Positions 22,885 to 43,292 of a DNA stretch of 64,000 nucleotides are shown here, one piece after another (positions within the stretch are counted from its first letter, which is position 1; each line of letters opens with the position of its first letter). Source of the DNA: an uncultured Alistipes sp. GTDB taxonomy: Bacteria; Bacteroidota; Bacteroidia; Bacteroidales; Rikenellaceae. The notes beneath the pieces were generated by a model. It was not told the DNA's origin and did no database searches. It saw only the letters and a list, made by a program, of their open reading frames with translations. A program made the position numbers and the translations under genes. Where the stretch lies: assembly GCA_947177225.1 (NCBI GenBank), contig CAMWTS010000007.1:2778-66777 (forward strand), read 5' to 3'.

Positions 22885-22906
22885 TTTTTATTTAATAATC
22901 TCGCTA

Positions 22907-22914: not shown

Positions 22915-23061
22915 TCCACTTCTTTTTGAAAGACCAATAATTTGCAGAAAAAAATATCAGTACGTCGCCTACAATATATATATATATATATTGACGTCGT
23001 GTAGAATTCGTAATGACTATTAATGCCCAAACTTCTATTCATCCTAATAAAGCTCATGTTT

Positions 23062-24399
23062 TCACCTTTTTCTGTTGTATTCCAACCGAACGGAATGATG
23101 TAATCTTTCCGCCTGCTCTCTAAACCATCTGACAATAGGTATCCCGTCGATTTTAAGGCCGAATTTGCAGCTATTGTTTTCATCGGGTAAAATCCGTGCG
23201 ATTACATTTTCGGCCTTGAATTGCTTTCGGTGCATTTCGGAATAGAGCGTACCGCTGTATTTGAGCGGTTTGCCTCCAATAAGCGTTTCCGTCTGCTCGT
23301 CGTTGAATCCGACCTTGCGGCAAAGTTCGTCCATGCGCAGCATCTCGCGGAAACGGGGAAACCATGTCAGCGCCTTGCGACCGACCGATTGAAGAAAAGA
23401 CAAATCTTTTTCGTATTGTTTCTTCATGTTCGCGGTTTCCGTCACGTGCCGCGCCTGCATTGTCGTCAGTTCCCGCCTATGTTCGCTTTGCATGGTCTGA
23501 ATCTTCGTTTGCAGAATCTCTATCGTTTCATCGCGCGCGGCAACCTCTTGCCGCAGCGCTCCGATTTCCTGCTCCTGCCGCTTGATTTTCGACGTGCCGA
23601 TCATTGCCCCGATACCGTCGAGGATGGTTGTACCCACCTCAGCGGCGGAGTTTTTCAGTTTCTCGGTTTTCAATTCACCTTTTACCGCCTTCAGTTCCGC
23701 CTCCACCTGTTCTTTGTCGATTCGGGCTTTCTCCGCCTCCCGCTTCTGCTTGGCGATGATGTAATCCGTCAGTTCCAGATGCTCGCGCCCTGTCAACTCT
23801 TTCGCCGTGCCGCGCTCCATGCCGAGTGCGTCGGCGAGTATGGTCTGCATTTCGCTCATATCCTGCGGTGTGAGCTTGCAGGACTTTCCCGTATCGTGAT
23901 TCATCCAGTCCCATACGATATGAGCATGGTAGTTCGGCTTCCATGAGGTTTTGTCATTGGGTATTCCGTAGTGCCCCTCGTCGCGGTGGATGAAGATTTG
24001 CAGCGGGGTAATGCCCCAACGCTTACGGCATAACTCTCCGTATCGTTGCAGCTGTTCCATCGTCGTGTCTGCCTTGCAGACCACGACACCCTCCTTAATT
24101 GGTGTGCTTCCGCGCACGGTAACGGTTTTTCCTGTCTTCTTGTTCAGGCGTGTGCGGTCTTTGGTCTGCATTGCCCGCCCTGTCTTCGTCTTAACCATCT
24201 CGCCGAGATACTTGTAATATTCCCGCAGCGACACGCCCTCGATTTGTGGCGACACCCACATTTCGTTGCCGTCCATAAGGTCGGTGCGCAGGTAGATATT
24301 TTCTTTGTTGATATGGGCGAGGTATTGGGGTGTCCGCCTGTTATGCGCCTCGCTTTGCCCGATGTTGCACGGGCGTATGTTGTCCGATGTCTTTGCCAT
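23062..24399 (-). CDS. MobV/Mob_Pre family relaxase (mobilisation protein)
   Basis: N-terminal SEAHNRR, IFIHRDEGH and NYHAHIVWD (3H) motifs; long coiled-coil C-half. Confidence 0.88.
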   Translation of the reverse strand: MAKTSDNIRPCNIGQSEAHNRRTPQYLAHINKENIYLRTDLMDGNEMWVSPQIEGVSLREYYKYLGEMVKTKTGRAMQTKDRTRLNKKTGKTVTVRGSTPIKEGVVVCKADTTMEQLQRYGELCRKRWGITPLQIFIHRDEGHYGIPNDKTSWKPNYHAHIVWDWMNHDTGKSCKLTPQDMSEMQTILADALGMERGTAKELTGREHLELTDYIIAKQKREAEKARIDKEQVEAELKAVKGELKTEKLKNSAAEVGTTILDGIGAMIGTSKIKRQEQEIGALRQEVAARDETIEILQTKIQTMQSEHRRELTTMQARHVTETANMKKQYEKDLSFLQSVGRKALTWFPRFREMLRMDELCRKVGFNDEQTETLIGGKPLKYSGTLYSEMHRKQFKAENVIARILPDENNSCKFGLKIDGIPIVRWFREQAERLHHSVRLEYNRKR

Positions 24400-24561
24400 A
24401 ATCTTTGATTGCTATAAGTGGGTTGGGGGCTTGGGGCGATGCCCCAAGCGGAGTTTCCAAAGAGAGGGTCACTCTTTGGTCGGGTTGCATAGGGCTGAAA
24501 GCCCTTGCCGGGTCGAGGACGGAGCCTTCGTGGGACGGGGCGAAGCCCAGCCCCTCGGGAG

Positions 24562-24608
24562 AGCCCACAACTACGAAAGCGAAGCGTGTAGTTATAGTGG
24601 GCTATAAC
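24562..24608. promoter_or_regulatory. Putative oriT of MOBV type
   Basis: Nested inverted repeats agcccac/gtgggct, aactac/gtagtt and gttatag-tggg-ctataac, upstream of the relaxase. Confidence 0.7.
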
Positions 24609-24692
24609 AAGGCAAGCCTTGTGGTTTGTGCGGCTCCCTCTGGGTTGCAGCTGCTTTTTATTCTTCCCTCTATTCGTTCGATGTCTGCGACG

Positions 24693-25655
24693 TTACAACT
24701 TGCAACCACGCGACCGCCTATGTTCTTTCACGGGACGATGACTGCGCAGATAATCGTTCAGATCGTTGTGCGTCCGATAGTGCACAGATTGGTCTGAGAG
24801 GTTGCGGCATGCCTCTTTCAATTCAGAGGTCGCCTTTCGCCCCGCCTCGTCATTGTCGAGGTAGGTATAAACCTGTTCGTGCGACGCGATGAACGGAACG
24901 ACTTTGGCAAGGTTCGTTACCGAGTTCAGCACGGCGATATTGTGCGGCGGGTTCGGGTTGCGCTTGAGCGTCAGAAACGAAAGGTAGTCCGTAAATCCCT
25001 CAAAAACGAGGCACGTCGGATAATCGCCGCGTCGGGTCGTCGGGGCTTTCGAGGCGCAGTCCTTGAAATAGCGGTTGCGCAGCTCCCACCCTCCGGCATC
25101 GTTTCGGAATCCGACGGCGAAATAGGATTTGTCCGCCACGCGATAATGCACCTCCGAACAATGCACCCGCGCCGTATCGAGGTCGATGCACCGCGCCATG
25201 AGGTAGTCAAGCAAGGCAGGATTTTCCAGCATCCGCACCCTCTCGACGATAATTGAGGGTGGACGCTGCGGGGCAGGATTCTTTCCGATGAACCGGCGTT
25301 GCGGAGCGAGAGCAGAGCAATTTTGAATTGCTCTACCGAGCCGCGAGGAGGAAAAGCCCGAAGGGCTTAAAGGAGAAACGGACATCCCGCCGATGTGTCG
25401 TTCCAGCCGCCGCATGGCCTCCCCTGCGTCGCACTGCTCTAATCGCATTATAAGGTCTATAATAGAGCCGCCTGTGCCCAGCCCGAAATCATACCATAGA
25501 TTCTGCATATAATCTACCTTGAAGCTCGGCGAATGTTCCTCACGAAGCGGTGAAAGATAAAGACCGTATCGCGGATTGTCTTTAACCGGGGGCAAGCCTT
25601 GTTCGGCGAGGTAGGCCCGAATCGAAATCTGTTTTATCTGTTGAATGTTGCTCAT
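24693..25655 (-). CDS. DnaG-like primase (CHC2 zinc finger plus Toprim), NBU PrmN-like
   Basis: SPLREEHSPSFKVD...WYDFGLGTGGSIIDL; VFEGFTDYLSF and YLDNDEAG Toprim motifs. Confidence 0.85.
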   Translation of the reverse strand: MSNIQQIKQISIRAYLAEQGLPPVKDNPRYGLYLSPLREEHSPSFKVDYMQNLWYDFGLGTGGSIIDLIMRLEQCDAGEAMRRLERHIGGMSVSPLSPSGFSSSRLGRAIQNCSALAPQRRFIGKNPAPQRPPSIIVERVRMLENPALLDYLMARCIDLDTARVHCSEVHYRVADKSYFAVGFRNDAGGWELRNRYFKDCASKAPTTRRGDYPTCLVFEGFTDYLSFLTLKRNPNPPHNIAVLNSVTNLAKVVPFIASHEQVYTYLDNDEAGRKATSELKEACRNLSDQSVHYRTHNDLNDYLRSHRPVKEHRRSRGCKL

Positions 25656-25663
25656 CTTTTTTT

Positions 25664-25844
25664 GTAAGTTTGTTGAAAAGTCTTCGCAATATTCAGTGAA
25701 ATAGAAAGTTATATATCTTACGTCATTCTTACACTCGATTTCAGTTGTTAGAGCGTAAGTATTTGTTAGACGTAGTAAGAGTTTTTGTAAGATATGTAAG
25801 TCATTAAGAATAAAAGATCTATATTTCTATCCTTACACTCTTAC
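25664..25844. repeat. Cluster of nine GTAAG/CTTAC motifs in an AT-rich spacer (iteron-like)
   Basis: Copies start at 25664, 25717, 25728, 25755, 25775, 25787, 25796, 25832 and 25840. Confidence 0.7.
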
Positions 25845-25847
25845 ATA

Positions 25848-27068
25848 CTATATGATCGAATCGCACCGCAACAGTTCTTCAAGCAGTTCGCGTGCTACTG
25901 TGTAGACTCTTGCAGTCTTACTCTCCTGCCTTGTTATTTCACCGTTATAGGCAATCGTGTAGCGTTGGTAATAGGTCGGCGGCGCGGGCGACAGCCGCCA
26001 ATTTTCCGAAAGAATCCGCCGCACGGTCGGATGGTCCGAACGGATACCGCGTACCTCCAGCATATTCACCATATCGCTCACGTCGAAGCGATACTCCGCA
26101 AGAGCCTCGGCGTCCATAATGTCGCGGACAATCGACAACATCTCTGCCTCGGTCTTGCTCCGATTGTAGTGAATGATCCGCCGCAAGGCGTCTGTCGCCA
26201 GCAAGCGCGGAGCAAACCACATGCGGCTCTCCTCACAGGTGGACAGTTCACGATGAAGCAGGAAGAACAAGAATCCCGGCAACTCGCGCCGCATATCGGC
26301 AAGCAGGTTTTGATTGTCATGCGTCAGCGGCGGCACACGCCGCACCCAATAGCGTGTTTCTCCGGCTTCGATCAGAACGGGATTGCGCTCATTGTTGGAA
26401 CAAAGAACAAACTTGCCGAAAAACTCCACCTCCCGACGGTCGCGCCCTTTTGCTTCGGCCTTGTAGCTCCGTGCGGTCGAAAGGTTCTTGATCCGTTCGG
26501 AATCTTCCCGACGGTTTAGCAGTACCTCGTCTACGCAGACCAGCAGTTTACCCGTCCAGTCGTCGTTGAACTGCGAACGGAAATCCTCGTTGGTATTGAA
26601 CGTCACGTTGCCCTCGAAGATCAGCTTTAGAAAATTGAGAAAGGTAGTCTTGCCTGTATTCCGCTCGCCGGACACCAGCAATACGATCGGCAGACGTTGC
26701 AGCGGACGTAGATAGAGCAGTTGGAGATAATCCAATCCCAGTTCGATCTGCTCGCCGAAAATATGACAGAGAAAGTCCCGGATATGCAGAAACTCACCCT
26801 CGGCAGGCACGGTCGAAATCGGTTCGTAACGGTTCAGAAAGCCGTTAATCTCTCGGCAGTAGTCGGTATGGCTCGGAATGGTACAGAAACCGTCGTACTT
26901 CGGCACTTGTGCGATATAATCCTTGCCATAGTCTTGGCGCAAGGTTTCTACGTTCCACGGAATCAATGTTTCGAGGCTCCGACCGTTGCTCAACGGCATA
27001 AGCACCCGTTTGAGTATTGTTGTACCCACACGCAGATATGGAATCTGTTCTTTTTCATCGACTTTCAT
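25848..27068 (-). CDS. Primase-helicase family P-loop NTPase (DUF5906/D5-like, SF3-type)
   Basis: SGERNTGKTTF Walker A, LVCVDEV Walker B, FVLCSNNE motif C. Likely start MKVDE at 27068. Confidence 0.82.
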   Translation of the reverse strand: MKVDEKEQIPYLRVGTTILKRVLMPLSNGRSLETLIPWNVETLRQDYGKDYIAQVPKYDGFCTIPSHTDYCREINGFLNRYEPISTVPAEGEFLHIRDFLCHIFGEQIELGLDYLQLLYLRPLQRLPIVLLVSGERNTGKTTFLNFLKLIFEGNVTFNTNEDFRSQFNDDWTGKLLVCVDEVLLNRREDSERIKNLSTARSYKAEAKGRDRREVEFFGKFVLCSNNERNPVLIEAGETRYWVRRVPPLTHDNQNLLADMRRELPGFLFFLLHRELSTCEESRMWFAPRLLATDALRRIIHYNRSKTEAEMLSIVRDIMDAEALAEYRFDVSDMVNMLEVRGIRSDHPTVRRILSENWRLSPAPPTYYQRYTIAYNGEITRQESKTARVYTVARELLEELLRCDSII

Positions 27069-27363
27069 CTCGCCCTCCTTTCTTTCCGGTGCGTATCGCT
27101 TCGACATCCTCGCGTCTGTAACGTTTCCGTCCACCGAACGGATAGGACTTGATATACCCGGTTTTCTCCCAGCACCAAAGTGTCGAAGAGTCGATTTTTA
27201 GAAGAGCCAATACTTCCTTGCGCGACAGAAATTCTTCGGTCGTTTGTTCTTGTGCGGCAGGTTTTGCGCCTTTTGCCGCTTCGTTGAGAATCGTTCTCAA
27301 ATCGTCGAGTGTCACCGTCACGCTGACATTTGCTCCCGACCCCAATAAATCCCTTAAACTCAT
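27055..27363 (-). CDS. Excisionase-like helix-turn-helix protein (HTH_17/MerR-like)
   Basis: FLSRKEVLALLKIDSSTLWCWEKTGYI...GGRKRYRREDV. Likely start MSLRDLL at 27363. Confidence 0.82.
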   Translation of the reverse strand: MSLRDLLGSGANVSVTVTLDDLRTILNEAAKGAKPAAQEQTTEEFLSRKEVLALLKIDSSTLWCWEKTGYIKSYPFGGRKRYRREDVEAIRTGKKGGRDESR

Positions 27364-27428
27364 AATCGAAAATTTTAGGTTAAACATGGATTCGCTGTTT
27401 TCGTCCAATCGGAACCGGGGCAAATAAA

Positions 27429-27482
27429 ACGGGAGATTTCTCGGAGAACAAAAATACTCGTTATCTCCTTGAAATCTCCCGT
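27429..27482. promoter_or_regulatory. Nested stem-loop upstream of the excisionase-like gene
   Basis: acgggagatttc/gaaatctcccgt with an inner ggaga/tctcc pair. Confidence 0.5.
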
Positions 27483-27504
27483 AAATATCTTTTTGGGGCG
27501 GTTG

Positions 27505-28227
27505 TCAGCGGTCGTGCTCGGCCATATATTGGGGAATATCCGTTATGTTGGAAATGATGAATTGCCGTGTCTGCGGGGAGTAGAGTTTCCCTTTGATATA
27601 AGAATCTTCCAACTCGGCAAGCGGAACAAATGCGGATTTCAGCCACGGCACTACCTCCTGTTTCGGTCGTCCGAAATAGTGTGCCATGTTCCATCCGAAA
27701 TGGAATAGATCGGCATTTTTCAACTTTTGCGGACGGATAGTTGGAAGTTCCGTCCCTTCGGATTCCTGCAACGCATAATACTCGATGTAGCGATCGAGCC
27801 GCACAAGTTCATCGGAAGTGACGTAAGGGCCTACCTCTCTATGCGCATAACGTCGAAACAATTCGATCTGTTTTTTCTGTCGTTCGATGAATCGTTTGTC
27901 AGCTTCCTGTTTGATATGCTCGATGTCTTTCTCTGAAATATTGTCGGCAGGTTCGATGATTCCCGACTCAGCGGTTGGCAGATTTTTTCCGGCAATCTTC
28001 GGGAAAATCTTGTCGGCCACAAAATCCGCCACGCTGGAAAATGCCGCCATGACGGTCAGATAGAATATCATGCAGATACCCATCACGATTATGAAAACGA
28101 GATTCGCTGTGCCTGTATCCGCGCCTTTCGCCAAGATTACCAATCGCGCAACCATAGACACGAGCAACCCGACGACAACGACTATCGCCAGTAGAATCAC
28201 ATAACTGTTAATCTTGCGGAAATCCAT
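27505..28227 (-). CDS. Membrane-anchored hypothetical protein typical of NBU/CTn-like elements
   Basis: Two N-terminal hydrophobic helices, C-terminal LFHFGWNMAHYFG motif; lies between integrase and excisionase. Confidence 0.7.
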   Translation of the reverse strand: MDFRKINSYVILLAIVVVVGLLVSMVARLVILAKGADTGTANLVFIIVMGICMIFYLTVMAAFSSVADFVADKIFPKIAGKNLPTAESGIIEPADNISEKDIEHIKQEADKRFIERQKKQIELFRRYAHREVGPYVTSDELVRLDRYIEYYALQESEGTELPTIRPQKLKNADLFHFGWNMAHYFGRPKQEVVPWLKSAFVPLAELEDSYIKGKLYSPQTRQFIISNITDIPQYMAEHDR

Positions 28228-28231
28228 CTCG

Positions 28232-29038
28232 CTATTTCAGTAGTTTTCTTTCGTCTCCGCTCTCCAATACCTGCATCTGCTGAATGGCTATTCGATTGAG
28301 CTTAACAAGCCGTTCACTCTGCGGCATCTTTTGATCGATGAATACGGCATTGAGATTCTCCATGTTGGACAAACAAATCAACTCGTTGATGGTGGCATAA
28401 TCGCGGATATTGCCTTTCAGATCGGGATTCTGTTCACGCCACATCTTCGCGGTTCTGCCGAACATGGCAACGTTCAGCACGTCGGCTTCATTGGCATAGA
28501 TGATGCTTGCCTGCTTCGCGGTCACTTCGGCGGGAATCAGGTTCTGTTTGATAGCGTCGGTATGAATGCGGTAATTGATCTTGGACAGTTCGCGTTTGGC
28601 ACTCCAGCCGAGCTGCTTCTGCTCCTCTTCCTTTAACCGCTGGAATTCCTTGACTATATACAACTCGAACTCTACGGAAATCCAGCTCGCAAACTTGAAC
28701 GCAATATCCTTGTGGGCATAGGTTCCGCCATAACGCCCCGATTTGGAAACAATGCCGATTGCGTTCGTCGTATTGATCCATTTCTGCGGCGACAAGGTAA
28801 AGGCATTCAGCCCGGCTTCCTTTCTAAACCCCTCGAATTCGAGGGGTTTGAAATCCGAATTATACAAACTCTCCCAAATTCCGAGATACTCGATTGTATT
28901 CCGGTTGCGCAACCAGTTGCCGATCACTGCATTCGGTTCGTCGCTCTTGTATCGAGCTATATCCGTCAGGCAGATATAGTCGTTCGTATTGACCGATATA
29001 ATCGTAACGTTCGTGTCTTTTACCGTAATCTTTGCCAT
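28232..29038 (-). CDS. KilA-N domain DNA-binding protein
   Basis: DYICLTDIAR...NWLRNRNTIEYLGIWE...SKSGRYGGTYAHKDIAFKFASWIS. Confidence 0.9.
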   Translation of the reverse strand: MAKITVKDTNVTIISVNTNDYICLTDIARYKSDEPNAVIGNWLRNRNTIEYLGIWESLYNSDFKPLEFEGFRKEAGLNAFTLSPQKWINTTNAIGIVSKSGRYGGTYAHKDIAFKFASWISVEFELYIVKEFQRLKEEEQKQLGWSAKRELSKINYRIHTDAIKQNLIPAEVTAKQASIIYANEADVLNVAMFGRTAKMWREQNPDLKGNIRDYATINELICLSNMENLNAVFIDQKMPQSERLVKLNRIAIQQMQVLESGDERKLLK

Positions 29039-29106
29039 ATTCGTATTGTCTTAATTGCAAATATACATTAACATTTTGATTTTTAGAAATTATCGAGCGT
29101 TCATCT

Positions 29107-30507
29107 CTATTCCAGAAATCCGATCATCTCGCGCTTCATATCGTCGTCGATATTTCGGTAACGGGCGAAAGCCCGGCTTCCCTCTTTATGACCGCTTAAT
29201 GCACCGACCATATTCGGGTCTTTGACCTTTTTATAGATGTTGCCGATGAACGTGCGGCGCGCCATATGCGACGATGCCACCTCGCATATCGGTTTTTGCA
29301 CCTCCTCCCGTGTCCGCTGGTCCGGTACGGTAATGATCCGGTTCAGTCCGGCGAGCCGAAAAGCCTCTTTGATCTTGCGATTGTAATGTTGTTCTGTCGA
29401 AAACGGGAAAAGGCTTTCGCGCCCTTCCTCGCGGTATTTGTCGATCAGTGCAATAGCCGTTTGGCTTAACGGGACACGGATGGTTATCGGGCGATCTTCT
29501 TTCGTCTTTCTTTGGATATATTCGATCGAATCGCCAATGATATTCCGATAGGTCATTTTGAACAAATCGCTGACGCGACACCCTATGAAGCAGTGAAAGA
29601 TGAAAATATCCCGCTGTATTTCGACTTCCGTATTGTTGGATAAATCGGCCTCGAACAGTTTGGTTCTCTCTTCATTGGTAATGTAGATCGGGGTTCCGTA
29701 AACGATTTCGCCGATGGTAAAATGTTTGAACGGATTGTTCGTCGTATGTCCGTTGTCGATAGCCCATAGGACAAACGCCCGGAAACGGGTCAGCATATCG
29801 GCAACCGTATTCAGCCCTCGCAATTTGGGCATACCTTTCGGAATCTCGTTGCCATCATCGTCCAATACAGGAGGACGTTTTCGTGTCGGAGTTTTGACTG
29901 CGACTTTCGCGGAATAGGGATATTGTTCGTATATCTCAGGATGGCTCAGAAATACAGATTGTTCATCGAACAGGAATGTCTCAATTTGTCCTAGTAACTG
30001 CGATGTAAGGGTTGTGAACGAAAGCGCGAACCCTCGGCTCTCCTCCACCTGCTTGTATAGCTCGAAACGGTGTAGGCAGCGTACCAGCACCCGAAAGTTT
30101 TTCAATCGATTTTCGGACAACTTGTGGGTGGCAAGGTAAATATCTATTACGTCGAAAAAGGACTTTTCGTGTTCTTTCTTCGCTTTGGTCGGTTTGTGGA
30201 ACCGCTTGACGACACCTTGCATATATTCGCGCGTTATGACAGATTTGTCCAATGCGGTATTGATTTCCTGCTCCAGTAGGTCGGTCAAGGCTTTGAGTCT
30301 GGAACGCTTCTCCAAAAGCTGGCCGCGCTCCTCGCCTTGAATCAGCGGAATGTTGATATCGTTCTTTTTGCCCCAGCGTTTGCGGTCAATCCATATTCCA
30401 GAACCGATACGCAAACGGATATCACGCGAAACATAAAGCCGCAGGTTGATTTCCGATTCTCCCGCGCTGTTGGTCGTCCTACCGATGTAGTAGTTCGTCT
30501 GTGCCAT
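29107..30507 (-). CDS. Tyrosine integrase, NBU IntN-like
   Basis: GCRVSD (R), RKTK (K), SHMARR (HxxR), SGHK (H) and ARYR (Y) catalytic motifs; N-terminal arm-binding region. Start at 30507 fits the promoter box at 30526-30533. Confidence 0.93.
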   Translation of the reverse strand: MAQTNYYIGRTTNSAGESEINLRLYVSRDIRLRIGSGIWIDRKRWGKKNDINIPLIQGEERGQLLEKRSRLKALTDLLEQEINTALDKSVITREYMQGVVKRFHKPTKAKKEHEKSFFDVIDIYLATHKLSENRLKNFRVLVRCLHRFELYKQVEESRGFALSFTTLTSQLLGQIETFLFDEQSVFLSHPEIYEQYPYSAKVAVKTPTRKRPPVLDDDGNEIPKGMPKLRGLNTVADMLTRFRAFVLWAIDNGHTTNNPFKHFTIGEIVYGTPIYITNEERTKLFEADLSNNTEVEIQRDIFIFHCFIGCRVSDLFKMTYRNIIGDSIEYIQRKTKEDRPITIRVPLSQTAIALIDKYREEGRESLFPFSTEQHYNRKIKEAFRLAGLNRIITVPDQRTREEVQKPICEVASSHMARRTFIGNIYKKVKDPNMVGALSGHKEGSRAFARYRNIDDDMKREMIGFLE

Positions 30508-33567: not shown

Positions 33568-34944
33568 ATGAAGAAACTTCTCGTCTCGTTCTTTTCGGTC
33601 ATATCCGTTCTCGGTGTTTCGGCTCAGGATATGACAGCCTATTTCGTCGAGGGATCGACATTCCGTTCGCAGCTCAATCCTGCATTGGCACCTCTGAAAG
33701 GATATATCAATATTCCGCTTGTCGGAAGCATTCAGGCCGGAGTCAACGGCAATATTCCGATAGGCGCACTGCTGTTCGACAACGGCGGCAGTCTGACCCC
33801 GTTTACCGATAGCGGAATATCGGCCGAGGCCGTGCTCGGACGGCTCTCTGCCAACAACGATCTTAACATCGGCAGCCGCATAGGATTGATCGGATTAGGT
33901 AGATATACGAGCAAGGGGCATTCGTTCTGGTCGTTCGATCTCGCGCTCAACATCGATGCCGAGATCAATGCTCCGCGCGAGCTGTTTTCGTTCTTGAAAG
34001 GCGGTGAGGCAGCAGACATACGCGATTTGCATGTGTCGCTGAAAAGCTATGCTGATGTCTCGTTCAACTACTCGTTCCGTGTGGCTCCGTGCCTGTATCT
34101 GGGCTTGCGTGCCAAGTTCGTCTCAGGCCTGCTGGGAGCCGATTTCGCGCTCGACCGCTTCGATGTGTCTGTCGGTTCCGAGCGTTGGTATGCCGACGTT
34201 GCCGGCAGTATCGAGATGAACGGCATCAGCGAGGAGCTGCAACCGGGCGATTGCATATACCTGGACGAGCTGACCGATTATATCGATCTGTCGAGCCTTG
34301 CCCGTCCGGCAGGTTACGGCGGTGCGATCGATATCGGCGCCACCTACGATCTCACCGGCTGGCTGCAACTCTCGGCTTCGGTCAACGATCTGGGCTTTGT
34401 CAAGTGGGGCAACGGCAGCACGCGCCGGTTCACGTTCGAGCAGAGCGTGTCGTCCGACGACATATCCATTGTCGACGGCAAGATCGAGTATCCCGAAGAT
34501 ATAAACTTTGATGGCGTGCAACTGAATGTCGTCGAGGGTTCGGGTTCGACGCAGCGTCTGACCACACGCATCAACGTCGGTGCGGATTTCGAACTGCTCG
34601 ACCACCGCTTGGGCTTCGGTGTGCTGTATAATGCCCGTATATGTCCCAACAAGACCTATCACACGCTGATGGGATCGGTCAACATTCACCCGCTGCGCTG
34701 GATAGGACTTACGGCGGCATATTCGGTTATCGACAACAAGGCGGGAGCAGTGTCGTTTGCTCTGAACATATGTCCGAGCTGGATCAACCTCTATGTGGCC
34801 ACCGACGTTTTGCTCGGCAGTCATGTAGGATATATGATTCCCGATCGCGGCTCCAAGGCCAATGTCACATTCGGCCTGGCTATTCCCATGGGACGCTGGG
34901 GCGCACGACGATTCAACACTCACCGCTCGCGCGGATATTTGTAA
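33568..34944 (+). CDS. DUF5723 family outer-membrane protein
   Basis: Signal peptide; FRSQLNPALAP, GGAIDIGATY, SASVNDLGFVKW; beta-barrel-like alternation. Start MKKLL at 33568. Confidence 0.8.
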   Translation: MKKLLVSFFSVISVLGVSAQDMTAYFVEGSTFRSQLNPALAPLKGYINIPLVGSIQAGVNGNIPIGALLFDNGGSLTPFTDSGISAEAVLGRLSANNDLNIGSRIGLIGLGRYTSKGHSFWSFDLALNIDAEINAPRELFSFLKGGEAADIRDLHVSLKSYADVSFNYSFRVAPCLYLGLRAKFVSGLLGADFALDRFDVSVGSERWYADVAGSIEMNGISEELQPGDCIYLDELTDYIDLSSLARPAGYGGAIDIGATYDLTGWLQLSASVNDLGFVKWGNGSTRRFTFEQSVSSDDISIVDGKIEYPEDINFDGVQLNVVEGSGSTQRLTTRINVGADFELLDHRLGFGVLYNARICPNKTYHTLMGSVNIHPLRWIGLTAAYSVIDNKAGAVSFALNICPSWINLYVATDVLLGSHVGYMIPDRGSKANVTFGLAIPMGRWGARRFNTHRSRGYL

Positions 34945-35147: not shown

Positions 35148-38100
35148 ATGAAGTACTTGTTTCTTCAAGTGCTGTTGCTGCTCGCAGTGGTGAGCGGCAC
35201 ATATGCACAGGTTACGACCTCATCTGTGGGCGGTCGTATTACGGACCATGAGTCCAACCCTTTGATCGGCGTCAGCGTTACGGCCGTTCATCAACCATCG
35301 GGCACGCGCTACGGCGTGGCTACCGATCTATCCGGACAATATACCATTACTGGCATGCGTGTGGGCGGACCATACCTCGTTACGATCAGCTATGTGGGCT
35401 ACACTACGGTCGAGGTAGGCGACATCGAGCTGCTGCTGGGCGAGAGCCGCCGTATCGATGCGGCTATGGAGCCGTCGCTGATGATCGATGCTGTTTTCGT
35501 CACGGCCGACGATACGCAGGGCTTGCAGCATGGCAGCGGCAGCAGCTTCCGTGCCGATAAAATAGCCTCCATGCCAACCATATCACGCTCGATATACGAC
35601 ATTACGCGGCTCTCGCCTCTTACGGGTTCGCCCAAGGCCGGAGGCGTGACTATCGCCGGTGCCAGCACTCGCTACAATTCGTTCAAGATCGACGGCGTTG
35701 TCAGCGACGATGTTTACGGTCTCGGCACAACGGGCATGACCGGTTCGCTGACGCAGGCCAATCCCATACCGCTCGATGCCATCGAGCAGATCCGCGTTTC
35801 TGTGGCGCCGTTCGATGTGCGTGAGGGCGGATTCACCGGCGGTGGAATCAATGCCGTTACTAAGGCCGGCGACAATACGCTGCGCGGTTCGGCCTATGCC
35901 TATTACAACGATCAGAACTTCTACGGCACCACGCCCGGCAGCGATGTCGCGGTGCGCGAGAAGCTGTCGAGCCAGACCACGCAGATCTATGGCGTGTCGT
36001 TGTCGGGACCTGTCGTGCGCGACAAACTGTTCTTCTTCGTCAATGGCGAGTATAATCGCAACGTAATACCGTCGGCCTATCACCCCGGCGAGGCGGGTTC
36101 GGCCGTCACGGCCGAACAGGCTCGTGTCATAGGCGATAAATATGCCGAGCTTACCGGCTGGAACAGCGGCGGCTACGGCCGTCATGATGCACCTGCCATG
36201 TCGGGAGCTTTCATTGCGCGTCTCGATTGGAATATCGATTCGACGCATCACATGTCGCTGCGCTACAACATGCTGCATGCCGATAAGAACGACACCTCCA
36301 ACTCGTCGCAATACTTCTATTTCACCGGAGCCGAGTACACCAATATCAACCGCATGCACTCGCTGGTAGCCGAGCTTAATTCGACATTTTCGTCGTGGAG
36401 CAATATCCTCCGCGCAGGCTATACCTATCTGCGCGACGGTCGCGAGACGGAGCGTCTGCTGCCGGCGGTAATCATCACCGGTACCGGAGCGTCTTCTAAC
36501 GGTACGACTGTGCTGGGAACAAACCAGTATGCCGGTCAGAACATGCTAAAACAGAACATATTCATCATATCCGACAATGCCAGCATCTATCTTGGCGACC
36601 ACACGCTGACCGTCGGCACCCACAACGAATTCTATACGGCCGACAACCTCTATCTGAGCAATGCTGCCGGCACATATACATACTCTTCGATCGACGATTT
36701 CCTTGCCGAGGGCGACGGTCTCGGAGCGCACGCTTCGCAATATGCCTACAACTACTTCATCGATCGCAGCGGCTCGGCGGCCAAATTGTCGAGTGCGCAG
36801 CTGAGTCTGTATGTGCAGGACAACTGGCGCCGCGGCGATCTGTCGCTTACCTACGGTCTGCGACTCGACATGCCGCTTCTGTTCTCGTCGCCGCGCACCA
36901 ACGATGCCTTCAACAGCAGCAGCTTTGCCGAGAAATACGGCGTGCGTACGGGCGACGTGCCGCGTGCGCAGGTGTTGTTGTCGCCGCGTGTGGGTTTCAC
37001 GTGGCATCACGGCGATCTTATGCTGCGTGGCGGTGCCGGCGTATTTACCGGCAGCGTACCGTTCGTATGGCTCAACAACTGCTACCAGAATACCGGTCTT
37101 ACGCAGTTCGGTTTGACGGTCAATGATCCCTCTCAAACACCCGCATTCAGTCTTACCCCCTCGCAGCAGGGTGTGGTGGGCAACCCATCGATCGATGTCG
37201 TCGACAAGGATTTCCGCTTCCCGCAGGTGTTCCGTGCCAACCTGGCTGCCGAATACGATCTCAGCGGCTGGAAGTTCTTGGTCGAGGGACTCTACACCAA
37301 GGGCATCAACAATGTCGTTTACCGCAATCTGGTGGCCGAGCAGCAGGGGCTGTGCCTGTTTATGGCCGATACCGATTCGCCGTCGGCTCCCTACTATACG
37401 TCGGATACGGGCGACTACTCGGCGGTATATCGTCTGTCGAATACCCGTCGCGGTCATTCGTGGTCGGTTTCCGGACGCGTTGAGCGCAACTTCCCATTCG
37501 GTTTGAGTTTGATGGCCGCTTACGCATATTCGCAATCGAAGAGCGTCAACGACGGCATTTCGGCTCAGGGATCGAGCAACTGGGGACGCACCTATGCCGT
37601 CGACTCAAACTCTCCCGATCTGTCGTACTCGGTCTACGATTTCCCCCACAAGGTGGTGGCCATGGTCTCATATACGCGCCGTTACGGATTGTTCGGCACA
37701 ACAGTTACACTGGTCTACGACGGCCATTCGGGCGAACGCTACTCGATGACCTATGCCCGCGGCCGCGTCGATGAAAACGGAGATACCTATCGCGGCAATA
37801 CACTTATGTATATACCCACGCGCGAGGAGATGACGCGTACGCTCTGGGCAGATGCCACATCGCAGCAGGCGTTCGAGGAGTATATCGAGGCCGACGACTA
37901 CCTGCGGTCGCACCGCGGCAGCTTTGCCGGGCGCAACTCGCATCTTCTGCCGTTCGAGCATCGGCTCGATCTGCATGTGGCGCAGGCGTTCTATTTCAAC
38001 CGTCGCGATTCGCGTCGTGTGGAGCTGAGTCTCGATATCATCAATTTGGGCAATCTGATCGACCGCAGCTGGGGTGCCTCCTACCTGACGAGCAACTGGT

Positions 38101-38243
38101 CGCTGTCGCCGGTCACCGTGACTGAGTTGCAGGCCGTCGATGGCGGCTATCGTCCGGTCTACAAGTTTACGGGTGCGTCTCCCACGCGCGACGACATACT
38201 CTCGCGCTGGCATATGCAGCTTGGAGTGAGAGTGGTGTTCTGA
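35148..38243 (+). CDS. TonB-dependent receptor, Oar-like, with an N-terminal carboxypeptidase-regulatory-like domain
   Basis: Signal peptide, GRYTI..MRVGGPY, IPLDAIEQI, GGFTGGGINAVTKAG plug region, C-terminal QLGVRVVF. Confidence 0.88.
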   Translation: MKYLFLQVLLLLAVVSGTYAQVTTSSVGGRITDHESNPLIGVSVTAVHQPSGTRYGVATDLSGQYTITGMRVGGPYLVTISYVGYTTVEVGDIELLLGESRRIDAAMEPSLMIDAVFVTADDTQGLQHGSGSSFRADKIASMPTISRSIYDITRLSPLTGSPKAGGVTIAGASTRYNSFKIDGVVSDDVYGLGTTGMTGSLTQANPIPLDAIEQIRVSVAPFDVREGGFTGGGINAVTKAGDNTLRGSAYAYYNDQNFYGTTPGSDVAVREKLSSQTTQIYGVSLSGPVVRDKLFFFVNGEYNRNVIPSAYHPGEAGSAVTAEQARVIGDKYAELTGWNSGGYGRHDAPAMSGAFIARLDWNIDSTHHMSLRYNMLHADKNDTSNSSQYFYFTGAEYTNINRMHSLVAELNSTFSSWSNILRAGYTYLRDGRETERLLPAVIITGTGASSNGTTVLGTNQYAGQNMLKQNIFIISDNASIYLGDHTLTVGTHNEFYTADNLYLSNAAGTYTYSSIDDFLAEGDGLGAHASQYAYNYFIDRSGSAAKLSSAQLSLYVQDNWRRGDLSLTYGLRLDMPLLFSSPRTNDAFNSSSFAEKYGVRTGDVPRAQVLLSPRVGFTWHHGDLMLRGGAGVFTGSVPFVWLNNCYQNTGLTQFGLTVNDPSQTPAFSLTPSQQGVVGNPSIDVVDKDFRFPQVFRANLAAEYDLSGWKFLVEGLYTKGINNVVYRNLVAEQQGLCLFMADTDSPSAPYYTSDTGDYSAVYRLSNTRRGHSWSVSGRVERNFPFGLSLMAAYAYSQSKSVNDGISAQGSSNWGRTYAVDSNSPDLSYSVYDFPHKVVAMVSYTRRYGLFGTTVTLVYDGHSGERYSMTYARGRVDENGDTYRGNTLMYIPTREEMTRTLWADATSQQAFEEYIEADDYLRSHRGSFAGRNSHLLPFEHRLDLHVAQAFYFNRRDSRRVELSLDIINLGNLIDRSWGASYLTSNWSLSPVTVTELQAVDGGYRPVYKFTGASPTRDDILSRWHMQLGVRVVF

Positions 38244-38473
38244 CGCCGCATCTCGCCGTGGCGGTGACGTAATATCGGCGTAAGCCGACAGGCTGCCTGT
38301 CTGTTTTTGCGGGGCGATTCGATGATTTGTCATCGGGTCGCCCCGATTTTGTCGATTGAAAAAGTTCGATTTCTCGCACTTTTTCCCGCCTCGGCATAGT
38401 TCGAACAAGTTCGGCACTGCCCTCGGCTTAATGAAAAAGTTGTTTTATTTGTTGTATTGTCTGTAAATTTTTA

Positions 38474-38481
38474 TACCTTTG
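38474..38481 (+). promoter_or_regulatory. -7 promoter box in front of the cobalamin riboswitch
   Basis: TACCTTTG immediately 5' of the riboswitch P1 helix. Confidence 0.7.
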
Positions 38482-38485
38482 TCTT

Positions 38486-38666
38486 CGCTTAGGTTCTCCG
38501 CAGGCTGCGCAAGCCTGCATGAGATTAAAAGGGAAACGGGTGTGAATCCCGTACAGTTCCCGCTGCTGTAATTTCCGAAATGGATTTGCGACACTCTAAG
38601 CCACTGACTCTTGCTTTGAGTTGGGAAGGCGTCGCAACCGGAATAAGTCAGAAGACCTGCCGAGCG
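38486..38666 (+). ncRNA. Cobalamin (B12) riboswitch
   Basis: aaaagggaaacgggtgtgaatcccgtacagttcccgctgctgtaa core, gccactg...tgggaaggc, and a 3' B12 box aagtcagaagacctgcc; P1 cgcttaggt/acctgccgagcg. Confidence 0.92.
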
Positions 38667-38858
38667 ATTGTAACGAGATTCGTGCCTGCGGTGAACGGGA
38701 CGGTCGGAGACTTTTTAGTTTCACGGATATACTTTATGTCGGAAGATGTCGGGGCGCATGGAGTGCGTCGTCGATAGCCGAAGCGGGGTAGTCGGAGGTA
38801 GGTTTCTCGTCGCGAACAGTAACTTTTTTAACAAACATTAGTATAAAAAATTTACGCG

Positions 38859-41216
38859 ATGAAAAAACTTCTGACTATTGTTGTCTGCACGTTTGCGCTT
38901 GCTGCGTGTCAGTACGATGACAGCGAATTGCGGCAGTCGATAGGCGATCTGACGGATCGTGTCGAGGCCATCGAAGGCTCGGTGGGCAGTCTCAATTCGC
39001 AGATTTCCACTATCCGCGAGTGTCTCGATGCACTCTCGGCCGGAAAGGTGATAATGAAGGTAACCCCGACCGATGCCGGCTACGATCTCACCATGAGCGA
39101 CGGTTCGGTCATCTCGATTCTGAACGGCCGCGACGGCGACAAGGGCGAGCCGGGAGACAAGGGCGATGCGGGTGACAAGGGTGATACCGGTGCCGCCGGC
39201 GAGCCCGGCCATACACCCGTTATCGGTGTTAAGCAGGATAGCGACGGTCTCTACTACTGGACTGTCGACGGTGAGTGGCTTGTCGACGGCGAAGGCAATC
39301 AGGTGCTTGCCGAGGGTCGCAACGGATCGGACGGCCAGACCGGACATACGCCTGTCATAGGTGCTGCCAAGGACGACGACGGAGCATATTACTGGACTGT
39401 CGACGGCGAGTGGCTCGTCGACGGCGAGGGCAACAAGATCAAGGCTTCGGCGGAGGATGCGGCAGAGTCGTTGTTTGCGAGCGTGGTCGAGCGCGACGAT
39501 GCGGTTGTCATCACGCTGACCAGCGGAACTGTGCTGACACTGCCCAAACTGACCGATGCCGCCATAGAGTGGGTCGATGATGCCGACTACAACTCATACT
39601 ACGGCGACAGTCAGCCGATAAAGATCAATACCGAAAATATCATCTCGGCTACGGTTACGGCTCCTTACGGTTGGACGGCATCGGTCAATCTCACCAAGGG
39701 CGAGGTCAACGTTACGGCTCCCTGGGTGGATCTCGATGTCGAGTATGATGGTTACATCTCGGTTATCGCCGTTACGAAGAGCAACGTTCCCGTGACCATT
39801 TCCAAGCGTGTGACCACGAGCTACGATATCACCGATGCCGCCAAGGCGCACGATCTTCTGCTCAATGTCATACCCGAATATGCCTCGGCGGCCAATCCGT
39901 TCAATGCCGTGTTCAATATCACCGAGCCGCAGAACTCGTATTGCAATGTGGCCATGACCTCTCTGACGGCCGATGCCGTACCTACGGTGACGTTCAACTT
40001 CATGCAGGGCGGTACGGGTCAGGTCAACATAGGCTCGTCGTCGATGACTTATTCTGGCGAGATCTATATTAATATAGGTGAGGGGTACGAGCTGACCATG
40101 AGCGGCAATATCAACTGCCCCAAGGGTTCGGTTATTCTCTCAGGCCGTTACAACGCCTCGTTCGGTCCCTATTGCGGTTTGTGCTTCATCACCGAGGGTT
40201 CTTACGTAAAGCAGTTCAATTTCCGATACAATACCGTCAAGCTCATCAACTGCGGTACGATCGATACGCTCAATGTAACCGTTACGGCCGAGGCTGTCAA
40301 CTACGGTACGATAGTCAACATCATCGACAACAACGACCGTCTGACGATTGTTCCGGTGCGCAACATGTCGAAATCATCGTCGAAGTTCATATCGAAGGTC
40401 ATCGAGTTCAACCCTGCACCGGGTCAGTACGGTTCGGGCAACTACTCTTCGCAGAGTGCGGCTCAGGGCATCGTGGGCAAGAGCGGTATGGTGTCGCTGG
40501 GTATGTTCGGCGGTTATATCGTCTTCCAGTTCGACCACTCGATCATAAATCTGCCCGGAACGGACTTCGTCATAGGCGGTAACCCTATGGCTACGTCTGC
40601 CGAGCCGGGAGCCGTCATGGTATCGTTCGATGCCAACGGCAACGGCATTGCCGACGACGAGTGGTATGAGTTGAAGGGCAGTCTCTACGATGCTCCGGAG
40701 ACAGTGCACGACTACTCGGTGACCTATCGCAAAGATACCGATAACAACTGCATACGCTGGACGGACAATCAGGGCGAGGAGGGTACCATCTCATGGAACG
40801 GTGCCAACAAGTCGCTTGCGTGGTGGCCTAAGGATAATCTCTCGGACGAATATACGCTTACGGGCAACAAGCTGGGAATCGTCACCATGTGGAACGCTTC
40901 GGATCTGTTGCAGGGACTGACCTACGGTTATGCCGACGTGCTCACCGACGACTACAATACGGTCATCGGCGGTGACAACGACACCAAGGGCAACAAGTTC
41001 GACATCTCGTGGGCTGTCGACAAGGACGGCAATCCGGTGAAGCTGCTGGCTGTCGATTTCATCAAGGTCTACAACCCGGTATTCGCCATCGACCACAACT
41101 ATCCGTCTTTCAACGAGGTGTCTACCGAGGTGTGCAAAGGCGTGTCGTTGACACCCGCCAATCTGCCTGCCCTTATGAGCGGCATCGGCGACTGGCAGAA
41201 CGGATCATCATTCTAA
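38859..41216 (+). CDS. Surface lipoprotein: coiled coil, collagen-like repeat, PL29-N/DUF4988-like repeats and a C-terminal 'cell surface protein' (BtuH-like) domain
   Basis: Lipobox FALAAC; 10 GXY triplets; two YYWTVDGEWLVDGEGN repeats; C-domain KVIEFNPAPGQY...SLGMFGGYIVFQFDH...AEPG...DDEWYELKGS. Confidence 0.8.
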   Translation: MKKLLTIVVCTFALAACQYDDSELRQSIGDLTDRVEAIEGSVGSLNSQISTIRECLDALSAGKVIMKVTPTDAGYDLTMSDGSVISILNGRDGDKGEPGDKGDAGDKGDTGAAGEPGHTPVIGVKQDSDGLYYWTVDGEWLVDGEGNQVLAEGRNGSDGQTGHTPVIGAAKDDDGAYYWTVDGEWLVDGEGNKIKASAEDAAESLFASVVERDDAVVITLTSGTVLTLPKLTDAAIEWVDDADYNSYYGDSQPIKINTENIISATVTAPYGWTASVNLTKGEVNVTAPWVDLDVEYDGYISVIAVTKSNVPVTISKRVTTSYDITDAAKAHDLLLNVIPEYASAANPFNAVFNITEPQNSYCNVAMTSLTADAVPTVTFNFMQGGTGQVNIGSSSMTYSGEIYINIGEGYELTMSGNINCPKGSVILSGRYNASFGPYCGLCFITEGSYVKQFNFRYNTVKLINCGTIDTLNVTVTAEAVNYGTIVNIIDNNDRLTIVPVRNMSKSSSKFISKVIEFNPAPGQYGSGNYSSQSAAQGIVGKSGMVSLGMFGGYIVFQFDHSIINLPGTDFVIGGNPMATSAEPGAVMVSFDANGNGIADDEWYELKGSLYDAPETVHDYSVTYRKDTDNNCIRWTDNQGEEGTISWNGANKSLAWWPKDNLSDEYTLTGNKLGIVTMWNASDLLQGLTYGYADVLTDDYNTVIGGDNDTKGNKFDISWAVDKDGNPVKLLAVDFIKVYNPVFAIDHNYPSFNEVSTEVCKGVSLTPANLPALMSGIGDWQNGSSF

Positions 41217-41237: not shown

Positions 41238-43073
41238 ATGAAAAGATACATCATATACGCCCTGCTCGGCTGTGCGCTCGTGCTCGGCAGCTGTGCAAAA
41301 GATTTCGATACCGATTCTCCTGCTCCCGTCGTTCCCGACAACCAGGAGGGCATAATACCTATGTCGCTCACCATGTCGGGCGAGCAGGCGGCAACGCGTA
41401 CCGATATGGTCGGCAACCGCGTACTGTGGAACGAGAACGATCGTCTGGGTATATTTTCGCCCGAAGCCTACTACGAGTGGAAGATGTCGTTCTTGCCCGA
41501 CAACCTCTATTACAACAATCCGGTCAACAACGTCTGCATGGAGATCGGGTCGGGAGCCGGATCGGCAGCCGCTACGTTCAAGATATCGTCAGTTTATGAG
41601 GGCGATACACCCGAATACACCGGTCGCTGGGGCTGGAACACCAAGAGCGAGCAGCTCAATTTCTACATGTATTATCCCTATCAGGAGGCGGCCAAGGCTG
41701 CTACCAAGCCCACGGCTCTGCCCTTTACGCTGCCTTCGGCTCAGAAGCAGAGCGGATCGGACAATACAGGCCGTTTCTCGGAGTACGATCTGGTATATGC
41801 CTCTACCGTGCTCGATCTGCCGGCCGAGGCTGCCGACAAGTCGGTCATAGAGGATAATCTGATATTCGATTTCGACCACGCTTTCGCCGTGTTGAAGATT
41901 ACGGTCGGCAACTACACGGCCGGTGCCGCCACGGTCACCGGAGTACGCCTCGCATCGGGTGATGGTCAGCCTTTGGCCGGCAACTTCACTCTCGACCTTA
42001 CCACGGGCAGCCTGACATCGGGACAGACGATCGATGCTTCGGGTGCTGTTGTCGAGGGTGTGTCGTCAAGTTCTGTGACTACGACCTTCGACGAGGGTGT
42101 AGAGGTTGCGCGTTACCAGTCGGCCGTATTGTATCTGTTCGTCAATCCGGTCGATCTCACCGCCACCGATACCAATGTGCTGACCGTCTATACTACCGAC
42201 GGTTACCAGCAGTTCGCGTTCAAGGCTTCGCGTGCCTTCGAGCCGGGCAAGATCTACACGCGCTCGCTTACGGTGCGCGAGTTGGAGACTTATCCGACGG
42301 CTACGCTCGATTTCGAGAGTGTCGATGCCAAGTATCTTGCCGGTCAGACATCGTATGGCGCCAACCTCTATAATGCCGAGAAGGACAAAACATCTTACGA
42401 GGGCGACCAGTTCATATCATACACCGATCCTGCAACGGGTCTTGTGATAGGCATCAACGACTACAACGATACTTATGTCACCATGTCGACCTACAAGAGC
42501 TTCTTCGGCGGCGGCCTGGCCATATCGCAGTGGAACGACATGACGCAGAACAGCTATCTCAACCAGTGCAGCGTATATTGCAAAGACGCTTCGACGGGCA
42601 AGGGCGGCGCCGACGGTTCGTCGACATTCGCCGTGGCCTACGGCTACGACGACGGCAGCGCATACAGCACCGACAACCGTTCGTCGTTCTACTTCGCCGA
42701 GGCGGGACGCGAGGCTGTCATATCGTCGCTCTGCGTATGCAATACCACCTATGTCCATCTCTGCCTGAAAGACGGCAACAGCTTCTCGACACCTATGTCT
42801 TACGACAAGAACGACTACTTCCGCGTGACGTTTACGGGTATCGACGCCGCAGGCGCCCAGACTGGCAGTGTGGCATACTATTTGGCCGATTTTCGCACGG
42901 AGTCTGCTCCCGGCATAGCCGAGGGCTGGAACAAGGTCGACCTCTCGCCGCTGGGCAGCGTGCACAAGGTCGTTATCAATTTCGAGGGCAGCGACAGCGG
43001 TGAGTATGGGCTTAATACGCCGGCTTACTGCGCAATAGATAATATCGAAGTGCGATTTACTTCGGTAGAGTAA
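41238..43073 (+). CDS. Fimbrillin (type V pilin)-like lipoprotein fused to a C-terminal DUF4465 (BtuJ-like) domain
   Basis: Lipobox LVLGSC; AATR-TDM...W.ENDRLGIF and FDHAFAVLKITV fimbrillin motifs; C-domain ATLDFE...NTTY...YYLADFR...GWNKVDLSPLG...GLNTPAYCAIDNI. Confidence 0.82.
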   Translation: MKRYIIYALLGCALVLGSCAKDFDTDSPAPVVPDNQEGIIPMSLTMSGEQAATRTDMVGNRVLWNENDRLGIFSPEAYYEWKMSFLPDNLYYNNPVNNVCMEIGSGAGSAAATFKISSVYEGDTPEYTGRWGWNTKSEQLNFYMYYPYQEAAKAATKPTALPFTLPSAQKQSGSDNTGRFSEYDLVYASTVLDLPAEAADKSVIEDNLIFDFDHAFAVLKITVGNYTAGAATVTGVRLASGDGQPLAGNFTLDLTTGSLTSGQTIDASGAVVEGVSSSSVTTTFDEGVEVARYQSAVLYLFVNPVDLTATDTNVLTVYTTDGYQQFAFKASRAFEPGKIYTRSLTVRELETYPTATLDFESVDAKYLAGQTSYGANLYNAEKDKTSYEGDQFISYTDPATGLVIGINDYNDTYVTMSTYKSFFGGGLAISQWNDMTQNSYLNQCSVYCKDASTGKGGADGSSTFAVAYGYDDGSAYSTDNRSSFYFAEAGREAVISSLCVCNTTYVHLCLKDGNSFSTPMSYDKNDYFRVTFTGIDAAGAQTGSVAYYLADFRTESAPGIAEGWNKVDLSPLGSVHKVVINFEGSDSGEYGLNTPAYCAIDNIEVRFTSVE

Positions 43074-43105: not shown

Positions 43106-43144
43106 GGGCGGGAGACTGCATGGACGGTCTCCCGCCCGATTTTT
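43106..43144 (+). terminator. Terminator of the riboswitch operon
   Basis: 11-bp inverted repeat gggcgggagac/gtctcccgccc followed by T5. Confidence 0.75.
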
Positions 43145-43292
43145 ACGAGGCCTCGCCGGCTGTCGAGATGTGCCGGTCGTGGGCTGTCTTCTCCGATTTA
43201 TGAAAGATTGTTGATAAAAAGTCGGAGAACTGCGGTAGCGGGTCTCTTTATTTGTCTACTTTTGTGGGCAACATAATATAAAACCCGTTGCT

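Follow-up and report, generated by a model that had tools for sequence, protein, structure and literature searches.

A BtuJ-type head on a tip-pilin-like module: a probable accessory cobamide-capture lipoprotein in a riboswitch-headed gene pair of an uncultured Alistipes sp.

What does a pilin module do in a protein whose other half resembles a vitamin B12-binding domain? The question is raised by an open reading frame (ORF) at positions 41238-43073 of a 64,000-nucleotide stretch of DNA from an uncultured Alistipes sp. (GenBank assembly GCA_947177225.1, contig CAMWTS010000007.1, positions 2,778 to 66,777 of the forward strand). This whole stretch is called the window in the following, and its sequence was found only in DNA runs of gut metagenomes. 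The ORF, the target of this analysis, is the second gene of a two-gene unit and codes for a 611-residue lipoprotein in which a type V pilin-like module is followed by a BtuJ (DUF4465) head. An earlier note, made from the letters of the DNA, had taken the protein for a pilus-tip subunit that binds cobamides and caps a shaft pilin encoded elsewhere. According to the analysis reported here, the target is probably an accessory cobamide-capture protein of the Bacteroidota B12-uptake (btu) system. Its module would rather likely serve as a single terminal unit, tethered by lipid or by a neighbour, and not sit on a long pilus. Coordinates are those of the window, and features lie on the forward strand except where stated.

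The reading frame of the target is open from the ATG at 41238 to the stop codon at 43071-43073. An alternative ATG at 41226 would add four residues; the homologues begin at MKRY. The fusion of a fimbrillin with a DUF4465 domain, which the earlier note had described, was recovered by the Pfam scan with both parts above their curated cut-offs: Mfa_like_1 (PF13149) at residues 61-348 (41418-42281; 55.9 bits, cut-off 27, E 8.6e-15) and DUF4465 (PF14717) at residues 419-603 (158.6 bits, cut-off 25, E 2.6e-46). No NCBIfam model matched the fusion protein. The smaller features named in that note are also where it had put them. The lipobox LGSC (LVLGSC) lies, together with the signal peptide and a following acidic stretch AKDFDTDS, within 41238-41318 and supplies Cys19 (codon 41292-41294). 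The sequence AATR/TDM carries its Arg codon at 41397-41399 (Arg54), and the fimbrillin motifs W..NDRLGIF and FDHAFAVLKI are found as WNENDRLGIF at residues 64-73 and FDHAFAVLKI at residues 212-221. The DUF4465-like domain, noted from about 42300, starts near residue 354 (nucleotide 42297) by structure and by alignment with BtuJ2. Within the 15-member target family Cys19 never varies and D22 hardly does, and the lipobox Cys is kept in 77 of 79 wider relatives. AKDFDTDS after Cys19 resembles the Bacteroidota signal for surface export of lipoproteins, so that surface exposure of the target is likely.

The C-terminal half of the target is an augmented beta-jellyroll of the BtuJ type (42297-43055, residues 354-606), as indicated by Pfam, by PDB sequence matches, by an AlphaFold2 (AF2) model and by Foldseek. 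The model was built from the 15-member family alignment and has a mean predicted local distance difference test score (pLDDT) of 79 and a predicted template modelling score of 0.72, with most of the head above pLDDT 85. In the PDB sequence search residues 353-605 matched BtuJ2 (9I2L) with E 6.4e-23 and BtuJ1 (9FCT, 9QPM) with E of about 5e-13. Foldseek with the AF2 model gave BtuJ2 9I2L as the best DUF4465 match (E 1.9e-18, target-normalised template modelling score 0.76-0.79), and further DUF4465 matches were 9FCT (BtuJ1), 9HMU, 9QPM and 4JQR. Two short motifs are kept. The HI-loop motif NTPAY (N593-Y597, 43014-43028) has T594, P595 and Y597 invariant in the family, and the motif NTTY (N502-Y505, 42741-42752) has N502, T504 and Y505 invariant. 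In the HMMER alignment the latter is paired with NTTY of BtuJ1 and NTSY of BtuJ2; NTPAY is aligned too. The Tyr of NTPAY contacts B12 and is retained in 97% of DUF4465 proteins (PMC13398666; PMC12751083). A Tyr of the DE loop contacts B12 as well, and B12 binding was shown by experiment for eight diverse DUF4465 proteins (PMC13398666). Y505 of the target would be this DE-loop Tyr, judging from the conserved motif and a predicted helix at residues 504-512. From the sequence and fold match to 9I2L and the conserved NTPAY and NTTY we strongly infer that the head binds B12, in agreement with the cobamide-binding domain claimed before.

BtuJ1 (BT1491) and BtuJ2 (BT1957) of Bacteroides thetaiotaomicron have the same jellyroll (9FCT, 9QPM, 9I2L; IPR027828) with NTPAY/NTTY. 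Like the target they are lipoproteins under B12-riboswitch control, encoded in btu loci. They are single-domain proteins with PDB chains of 244-305 residues, whereas the target has about 300 additional N-terminal residues, which make up the pilin module.

The fold of this module, with two beta-sandwich domains (NTD and CTD) of the FimA/Mfa type, was matched by Foldseek, with probability 1.0, to the FimA/Mfa-superfamily structures 3T2L, 4K4K, 3UFI, 4EPS, 3SY6, 5NFI, 5DHM and 5NF4, which include entries of the Joint Center for Structural Genomics as well as Mfa2, Mfa3 and Mfa4. The sole sequence-profile match of the module in the PDB is weak and is to 4EPS, in which STRTED...FTQGDQIGLF is paired with TRT...W..D.IGIF of the target family. 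4EPS is BovFim1C, which has been described as a tip pilin of type V that bears a globular head (bioRxiv 10.1101/2024.11.15.621889). DSSP on the AF2 model gave a predicted anchor (A1/beta-1) strand IIPMSLTMSGE at residues 39-49 (41352-41384), with a mean pLDDT of about 78 over residues 41-50. It is followed by a disordered loop at residues 51-61 (pLDDT below 50), which holds Arg54 in a T-R-T motif as a putative processing site for an Arg/Lys-specific protease. This arrangement of an anchor strand and a beta1-beta2 loop defines type V pilins (PMC13655056). At the other end the chain stops five residues past the last jellyroll strand and thus has no C-terminal donor strand. By the published definitions of type V pilin classes (PMC13655056; bioRxiv 10.1101/2024.11.15.621889), stalk and anchor pilins are excluded, and among the pilin classes only the terminal (tip) subunit fits. 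A module that accepts a strand but donates none does not polymerise by itself.

The tip-pilin architecture seen by the earlier note is thereby borne out: there is a predicted anchor strand, a loop with an invariantly basic residue, and a head domain where a donor strand would otherwise stand. The data support the view that the N-terminal half truly belongs to the pilin modules of the FimA/Mfa superfamily and has features of the tip type. We describe the target as built and working like a tip pilin, and stop short of calling it a demonstrated pilus component. BovFim1C (BACOVA_04982, 4EPS) and BfrT, BthT and BunT, which are diversified by a diversity-generating retroelement, have an N-terminal pilin module with lipobox, anchor strand and cleavable Arg, which the target matches with a predicted strand and a putative site; like the target they have a C-terminal globular binding head and no donor strand. 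They are encoded at the end of operons for anchor and stalk pilins and carry adhesive heads of the C-type-lectin-like kind, whereas the target has a predicted vitamin-binding head, riboswitch control and no pilin neighbours. The accessory pilins Mfa4 and Mfa5 of Porphyromonas gingivalis also accept a strand and donate none (PMC13655056), but they belong to the mfa operon, are matured by gingipains and lack a small-molecule-binding head.

The site at Arg54 reads TRT in 14 of the 15 proteins of the target family and TKT in one. Among 79 representatives with pairwise identity below 50%, position 54 is basic in every case (44 R, 35 K), with Thr on either side. R and K thus replace one another freely in a flexible loop while the position stays basic throughout, which is how an Arg/Lys-specific processing site would look. 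For a B. fragilis tip pilin, cleavage at R43 was shown by mass spectrometry. For the target the odds lean slightly towards cleavage at Arg54. B12 heads on stalks are known: BtuH2 has three PKD domains and BtuK one (PMC13616437). BtuH2 (BT1956, 7BIZ), BtuK1 and BtuK2 follow the design proposed for the target, with a B12 head held off the outer membrane on the immunoglobulin-like stalk domains of a surface lipoprotein. Their PKD domains have no processing site, whereas the stalk of the target is a pilin module with a putative Arg/Lys site. A rival reading makes the target a plain lipid-anchored monomer, in which the module would be inherited and act as no more than a spacer, as the PKD domains do in BtuH2, Arg54 would be uncleaved or its cleavage would be inconsequential, and the groove would be empty. 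This is a possible reading, although a doubtful one. It agrees with the btu context, with the lack of pilin genes nearby, and with the presence of the same B12 heads on other stalks, namely PKD domains and the DUF4988 fibre described below. It does not easily explain why a residue in a disordered loop should be basic in 79 of 79 representatives, with R and K interchanging, if no protease acts there, and it leaves the conserved tail of the upstream partner protein, to which we return, without an explanation.

The unit in which the target is encoded points to B12. A cobalamin riboswitch aptamer (RF00174) was detected over its full length at 38473-38678 (Rfam 96.8 bits, gathering threshold 31.5, E 6.7e-23). 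The unit is enclosed by two hairpins that resemble intrinsic terminators and are followed by T runs. The first, at 38310-38355 (16-bp stem, 10 G-C pairs), ends the upstream gene for a TonB-dependent receptor and separates it from the riboswitch unit; the second, at 43106-43147 (13-bp stem, 10 G-C pairs), lies between the target and guaB. Exactly two genes are found between the terminators, one at 38859-41216 and the target, with 21 nucleotides between them. The first gene codes for a 785-residue lipoprotein in which a DUF4988 coiled-coil/collagen-like (Gly-X-Y) fibre, with Pfam DUF4988 and Collagen matches at the N-terminus, precedes a BtuH B12-binding domain at residues 505-764 (E 2.7e-31 to 7BIZ, BtuH2; E 5.6e-32 to 8BLW_B, BtuGH). 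Since both genes carry B12-binding domains, the unit encodes two different heads, each on a long N-terminal scaffold. The first gene represents a new BtuH architecture; the BtuH proteins described so far have no stalk, PKD domains or a fusion to BtuG. Its collagen-like repeats suggest a trimeric fibre. The Gly-X-Y repeats were located at about residues 90-118, two YYWTVDGEWL repeats were seen, and no domain was assigned to the region of about residues 230-505.

The same association was found in relatives. The two-domain architecture of the target was recovered in only 15 clusters by a word-indexed search (40-100% identity). A scan of one genome per GTDB species gave seven loci, five of them in Alistipes, including A. 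putredinis, and the remaining two in a mouse-gut Bacteroidales genome and a Marinifilaceae genome. In every locus of the Alistipes type the BtuH fibre gene stands immediately 5' of the fusion gene, and this pair is kept across relatives that are 39-100% identical. At loci L004, L011 and L012 the pair is followed by genes for BtuG (DUF5074), a PKD-type BtuH and BtuB, and a cobalamin riboswitch stands at the start in each of the ten related loci that were examined. Locus L012, from an A. putredinis metagenome-assembled genome (CP091730.1), is a special case: its whole btu locus at 7541-17009, comprising the fibre BtuH, the Mfa::BtuJ fusion, BtuG, PKD-BtuH and BtuB, is split into several ORFs by frameshifts, for which an assembly error is more likely than pseudogenisation.

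When the pilin module alone was used in an exhaustive profile search, 1617 relatives were obtained, only about 16 of them close. The close ones carry DUF4465 or, in protein P0019, a BtuG/K-type propeller (DUF5074, E 4.9e-58). Protein P0164, 90% identical to P0019 and of the same architecture, is encoded at 10001-11974 of locus L016, where the order is riboswitch, BtuB, BtuG, PKD-BtuH, Mfa::DUF4465 and Mfa::DUF5074. The DUF5074 propeller of this fusion is seven-bladed, and its gene stands in tandem with the Mfa::DUF4465 gene. DUF4988 fibres with a DUF5074 head occur too. B12 heads have thus been recombined in a modular way with several stalks, and this subfamily of pilin modules is specialised for B12 heads. 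The wider subfamily (P0016-P0100) has very varied C-terminal heads, among them Fib_succ_major in 21 of the 79 proteins scanned as well as LRR, Lcl_C, Peptidase_M64, F5/8 type C and GDSL lipase domains. All of these modules retain the basic residue at the putative processing site, and a tip-pilin scaffold with a head looks like a general display platform.

These contexts bear on the claim that the target caps a shaft pilin encoded elsewhere, a part of the earlier note that did not find support. In the cases characterised, the gene of the tip pilin follows directly after those for anchor and stalk (bioRxiv 10.1101/2024.11.15.621889). Neighbours and exported proteins of the window were scanned with Pfam, precomputed Pfam assignments were used for the related loci, and a hidden Markov model (HMM) of the module was searched with E up to 10; none of these turned up a pilin gene of the Mfa, FimA or Mfa2 type, either in the 64-kb window or in the roughly 10 kb around any related locus. 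The conserved neighbours of the fusion gene are B12-uptake genes instead. In a true type V tip subunit Arg54 would be cleaved, a stalk or adaptor pilin from another part of the genome would insert its donor strand into the groove, and the B12 trap would then sit at the end of a long filament. All hallmarks of a tip pilin in sequence and fold are present in the target, the only PDB profile match of its module is itself a tip pilin, with TRT...GDQIGLF aligned, and Bacteroidales genomes hold many pilin operons. The missing anchor and stalk genes nevertheless weigh against such a subunit, as do the nearest relatives of the module, all of which have B12 heads and lie in btu loci. As the target is expressed from a B12 riboswitch, a shaft encoded elsewhere would also need to be co-regulated. 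We regard a place at the tip of a pilus as unlikely, and favour the reading in which the module is a single terminal unit of the B12-uptake system.

What could then fill the groove of this terminal unit? A candidate is encoded at the end of the upstream gene. The ORF directly 5' of every Mfa-like gene with a B12 head ends in G-phi-(G/D/E)-x-W-x-(N/D/G)-(G/A)-x-x-(F/W/L)-stop. The first gene of the window has the C-terminal tail GIGDWQNGSSF (41181-41213), a candidate donor strand with the motif W-x-(N/D/G)-(G/A)-x-x-(F/W/L)-COOH. The BtuH fibres of other loci end in GIGGWDNGSSF (L001), GFDSWKDGGTF (L006), GVDGWNNGGNF (L013), GVEGWEDGGSL (L015) and GVEGWTGSTF (L004), and L009 is also among the loci with the conserved tail. 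At the Marinifilaceae locus (L008) the tail is GLDNWGNANPF and belongs to an unrelated lipoprotein of 136 residues, and in L016 two ORFs of 36 and 41 codons, one 5' of each Mfa-like gene, end in ...YPW(D/E)NGGNW. The tail is thus borne by proteins some of which share no homology. As a regular expression it was found in 12 of the 1420 ORFs of these loci, every one of them a partner protein; with a gap of 1-3 residues the pattern occurred at 6 of 15,799 ORF ends taken from unrelated loci. Synonymous codons differ among the tails, so that it is the peptide that is conserved.

Neither the PKD-type BtuH paralogues of the same loci nor the DUF4988+DUF5074 fibres have the tail, which therefore tracks the neighbouring gene, not the BtuH or fibre family. 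Two-domain Mfa_like_1 pilins have similar ends (...TVTDWITNDGGEVLIN, ...KPWEDDGNDYGGNAS, ...MEDRGTWYS), even where no pilin gene follows, which suggests that the tail is a motif of pilin donor ends. As a hypothesis, the tail may occupy the groove of the module and so clip BtuJ beside BtuH at the tip of the fibre. Type V assembly chemistry would in that case be re-used as a B12 relay: after cleavage at Arg54 the groove would be filled by GIGDWQNGSSF, and a BtuJ head would be clipped next to each BtuH head at the end of the collagen-like fibre, with no shaft pilin. This docked form is a tentative proposal, and we think it rather improbable.

A second group of short sequences was found when metagenomes were scanned with related Mfa_like_1 modules, which gave 78 loci (L018-L095). 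In these loci 81 small ORFs of about 35-60 codons share the core YEPPxIEVVEVxVEKGFADSxxD(W/F)GxGxW-stop, and 64 of them end 6-85 nucleotides 5' of an Mfa-like gene. Counted by genes, a small ORF is present before 53 of the 71 Mfa-like genes for which upstream DNA was available. The small ORFs encode no signal peptide and matched no model in Pfam and NCBIfam scans. An HMM of their core finds the two ORFs of L016 (7965-8075 and 9834-9959; E about 1e-12) and misses both the tails of the Alistipes fibres and the 136-residue lipoprotein of L008, so that the link between tail and small ORF is a short motif only and not demonstrated homology. Fusion of the L016 ORFs to the upstream genes by read-through was considered and rejected, because two stop codons intervene in one of the two cases. 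The small ORFs could be stand-alone peptides resembling donor strands or translational control peptides; a role in translation, through arrest or coupling, is no less plausible than a structural one.

For the target itself the following sequence of events is proposed. When B12 is scarce the riboswitch would be in the ON state, and only then would both genes be expressed. The target would be exported, lipidated at Cys19 and flipped to the cell surface, with its BtuJ head held at the far end of the two-domain module derived from a type V pilin. Cobamides would be captured away from the membrane and passed to the co-expressed BtuH-type head and from there to BtuG-BtuB. Transfer of B12 in vitro from BtuJ1 to BtuG2 and BtuH2 has been reported. 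Two ways of holding the module as a single terminal unit are proposed: its own lipidated anchor strand may keep it in place, remaining bound even once Arg54 has been cleaved, or a strand of the operon neighbour may do so. If cleavage did free the target from its lipid anchor, it could become a soluble or vesicle-borne B12 binder, since a cut after the anchor strand removes the sole covalent tie to the membrane (PMC13655056); BtuJ proteins of B. thetaiotaomicron do act at a distance on vesicles. However, the anchor strand of a type V pilin remains in place after cleavage and leaves only when a donor strand takes over its position (PMC13655056), and a soluble binder would need to be recaptured. 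A released scavenger is judged very improbable.

Several observations weigh against this proposal. The AF2 model of the target was built from only 15 sequences (pLDDT 79). BtuB and BtuG are not adjacent to the target in the window, and the adjoining TonB-dependent receptor is of a different type and separately terminated. The strictly basic position 54 argues for processing as in a real pilin, which would leave room for a pilus built from genes elsewhere in the genome.

The TonB-dependent receptor (35148-38243, 1031 residues) has CarboxypepD_reg and OMP_b-brl_4 domains and a weak Plug match, and is preceded by a gene for a DUF5723 protein (33568-34944). A part for this receptor in the B12 system was considered. 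It is probably unrelated: the gene lies upstream of the riboswitch and has its own terminator, its synteny is kept in close relatives only, and it has no relative in the PDB. Farther upstream, on the reverse strand, an apparent integrated mobile element covers about 14578-30507, with a tyrosine integrase (29107-30507), a KilA-N protein, a DUF5906/VapE-like protein, a Toprim/zinc-ribbon primase and a weak relaxase match. Several ORFs within 17800-20711 have a much lower third-position GC content, 0.37-0.52 compared with about 0.7 elsewhere.

BtuJ, BtuH, type V tip pilins and B12 riboswitches were already known; what appears to be new is a BtuJ head joined to a module of the tip-pilin kind. Databases label the relatives of the target only as 'DUF4465 domain-containing protein'. 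Neither fimbrillin, pilin nor pilus is mentioned in the BtuJ papers searched, and a full-text literature search for fimbrillin with cobalamin and riboswitch returned nothing relevant. Only in 2025 were BtuJ proteins placed at the outermost stage of the cobamide relay in Bacteroides, and the way in which they deliver B12 to BtuH and BtuG counts as an open question (PMC13616437). In the Alistipes-centred family the BtuJ jellyroll, the BtuG/K propeller and the BtuH domain are carried on a pilin module, on PKD domains or on a collagen-like fibre, and the BtuJ head stands on a scaffold whose usual role is assembly by strand exchange. If the module is indeed processed and docked to its operon neighbour, this would provide a physical basis for the hand-off from BtuJ to BtuH. 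In that case type V pilin chemistry would also serve the capture of a nutrient, to our knowledge for the first time. The small-ORF family, for its part, bears on the workings of the whole class of head-bearing fimbrillin-like genes. Even if read conservatively, the results mean that not all 'fimbrillin-like' genes of Bacteroidales are adhesins, and they would give a functional annotation to a family that has so far been named only after its DUF4465 domain.

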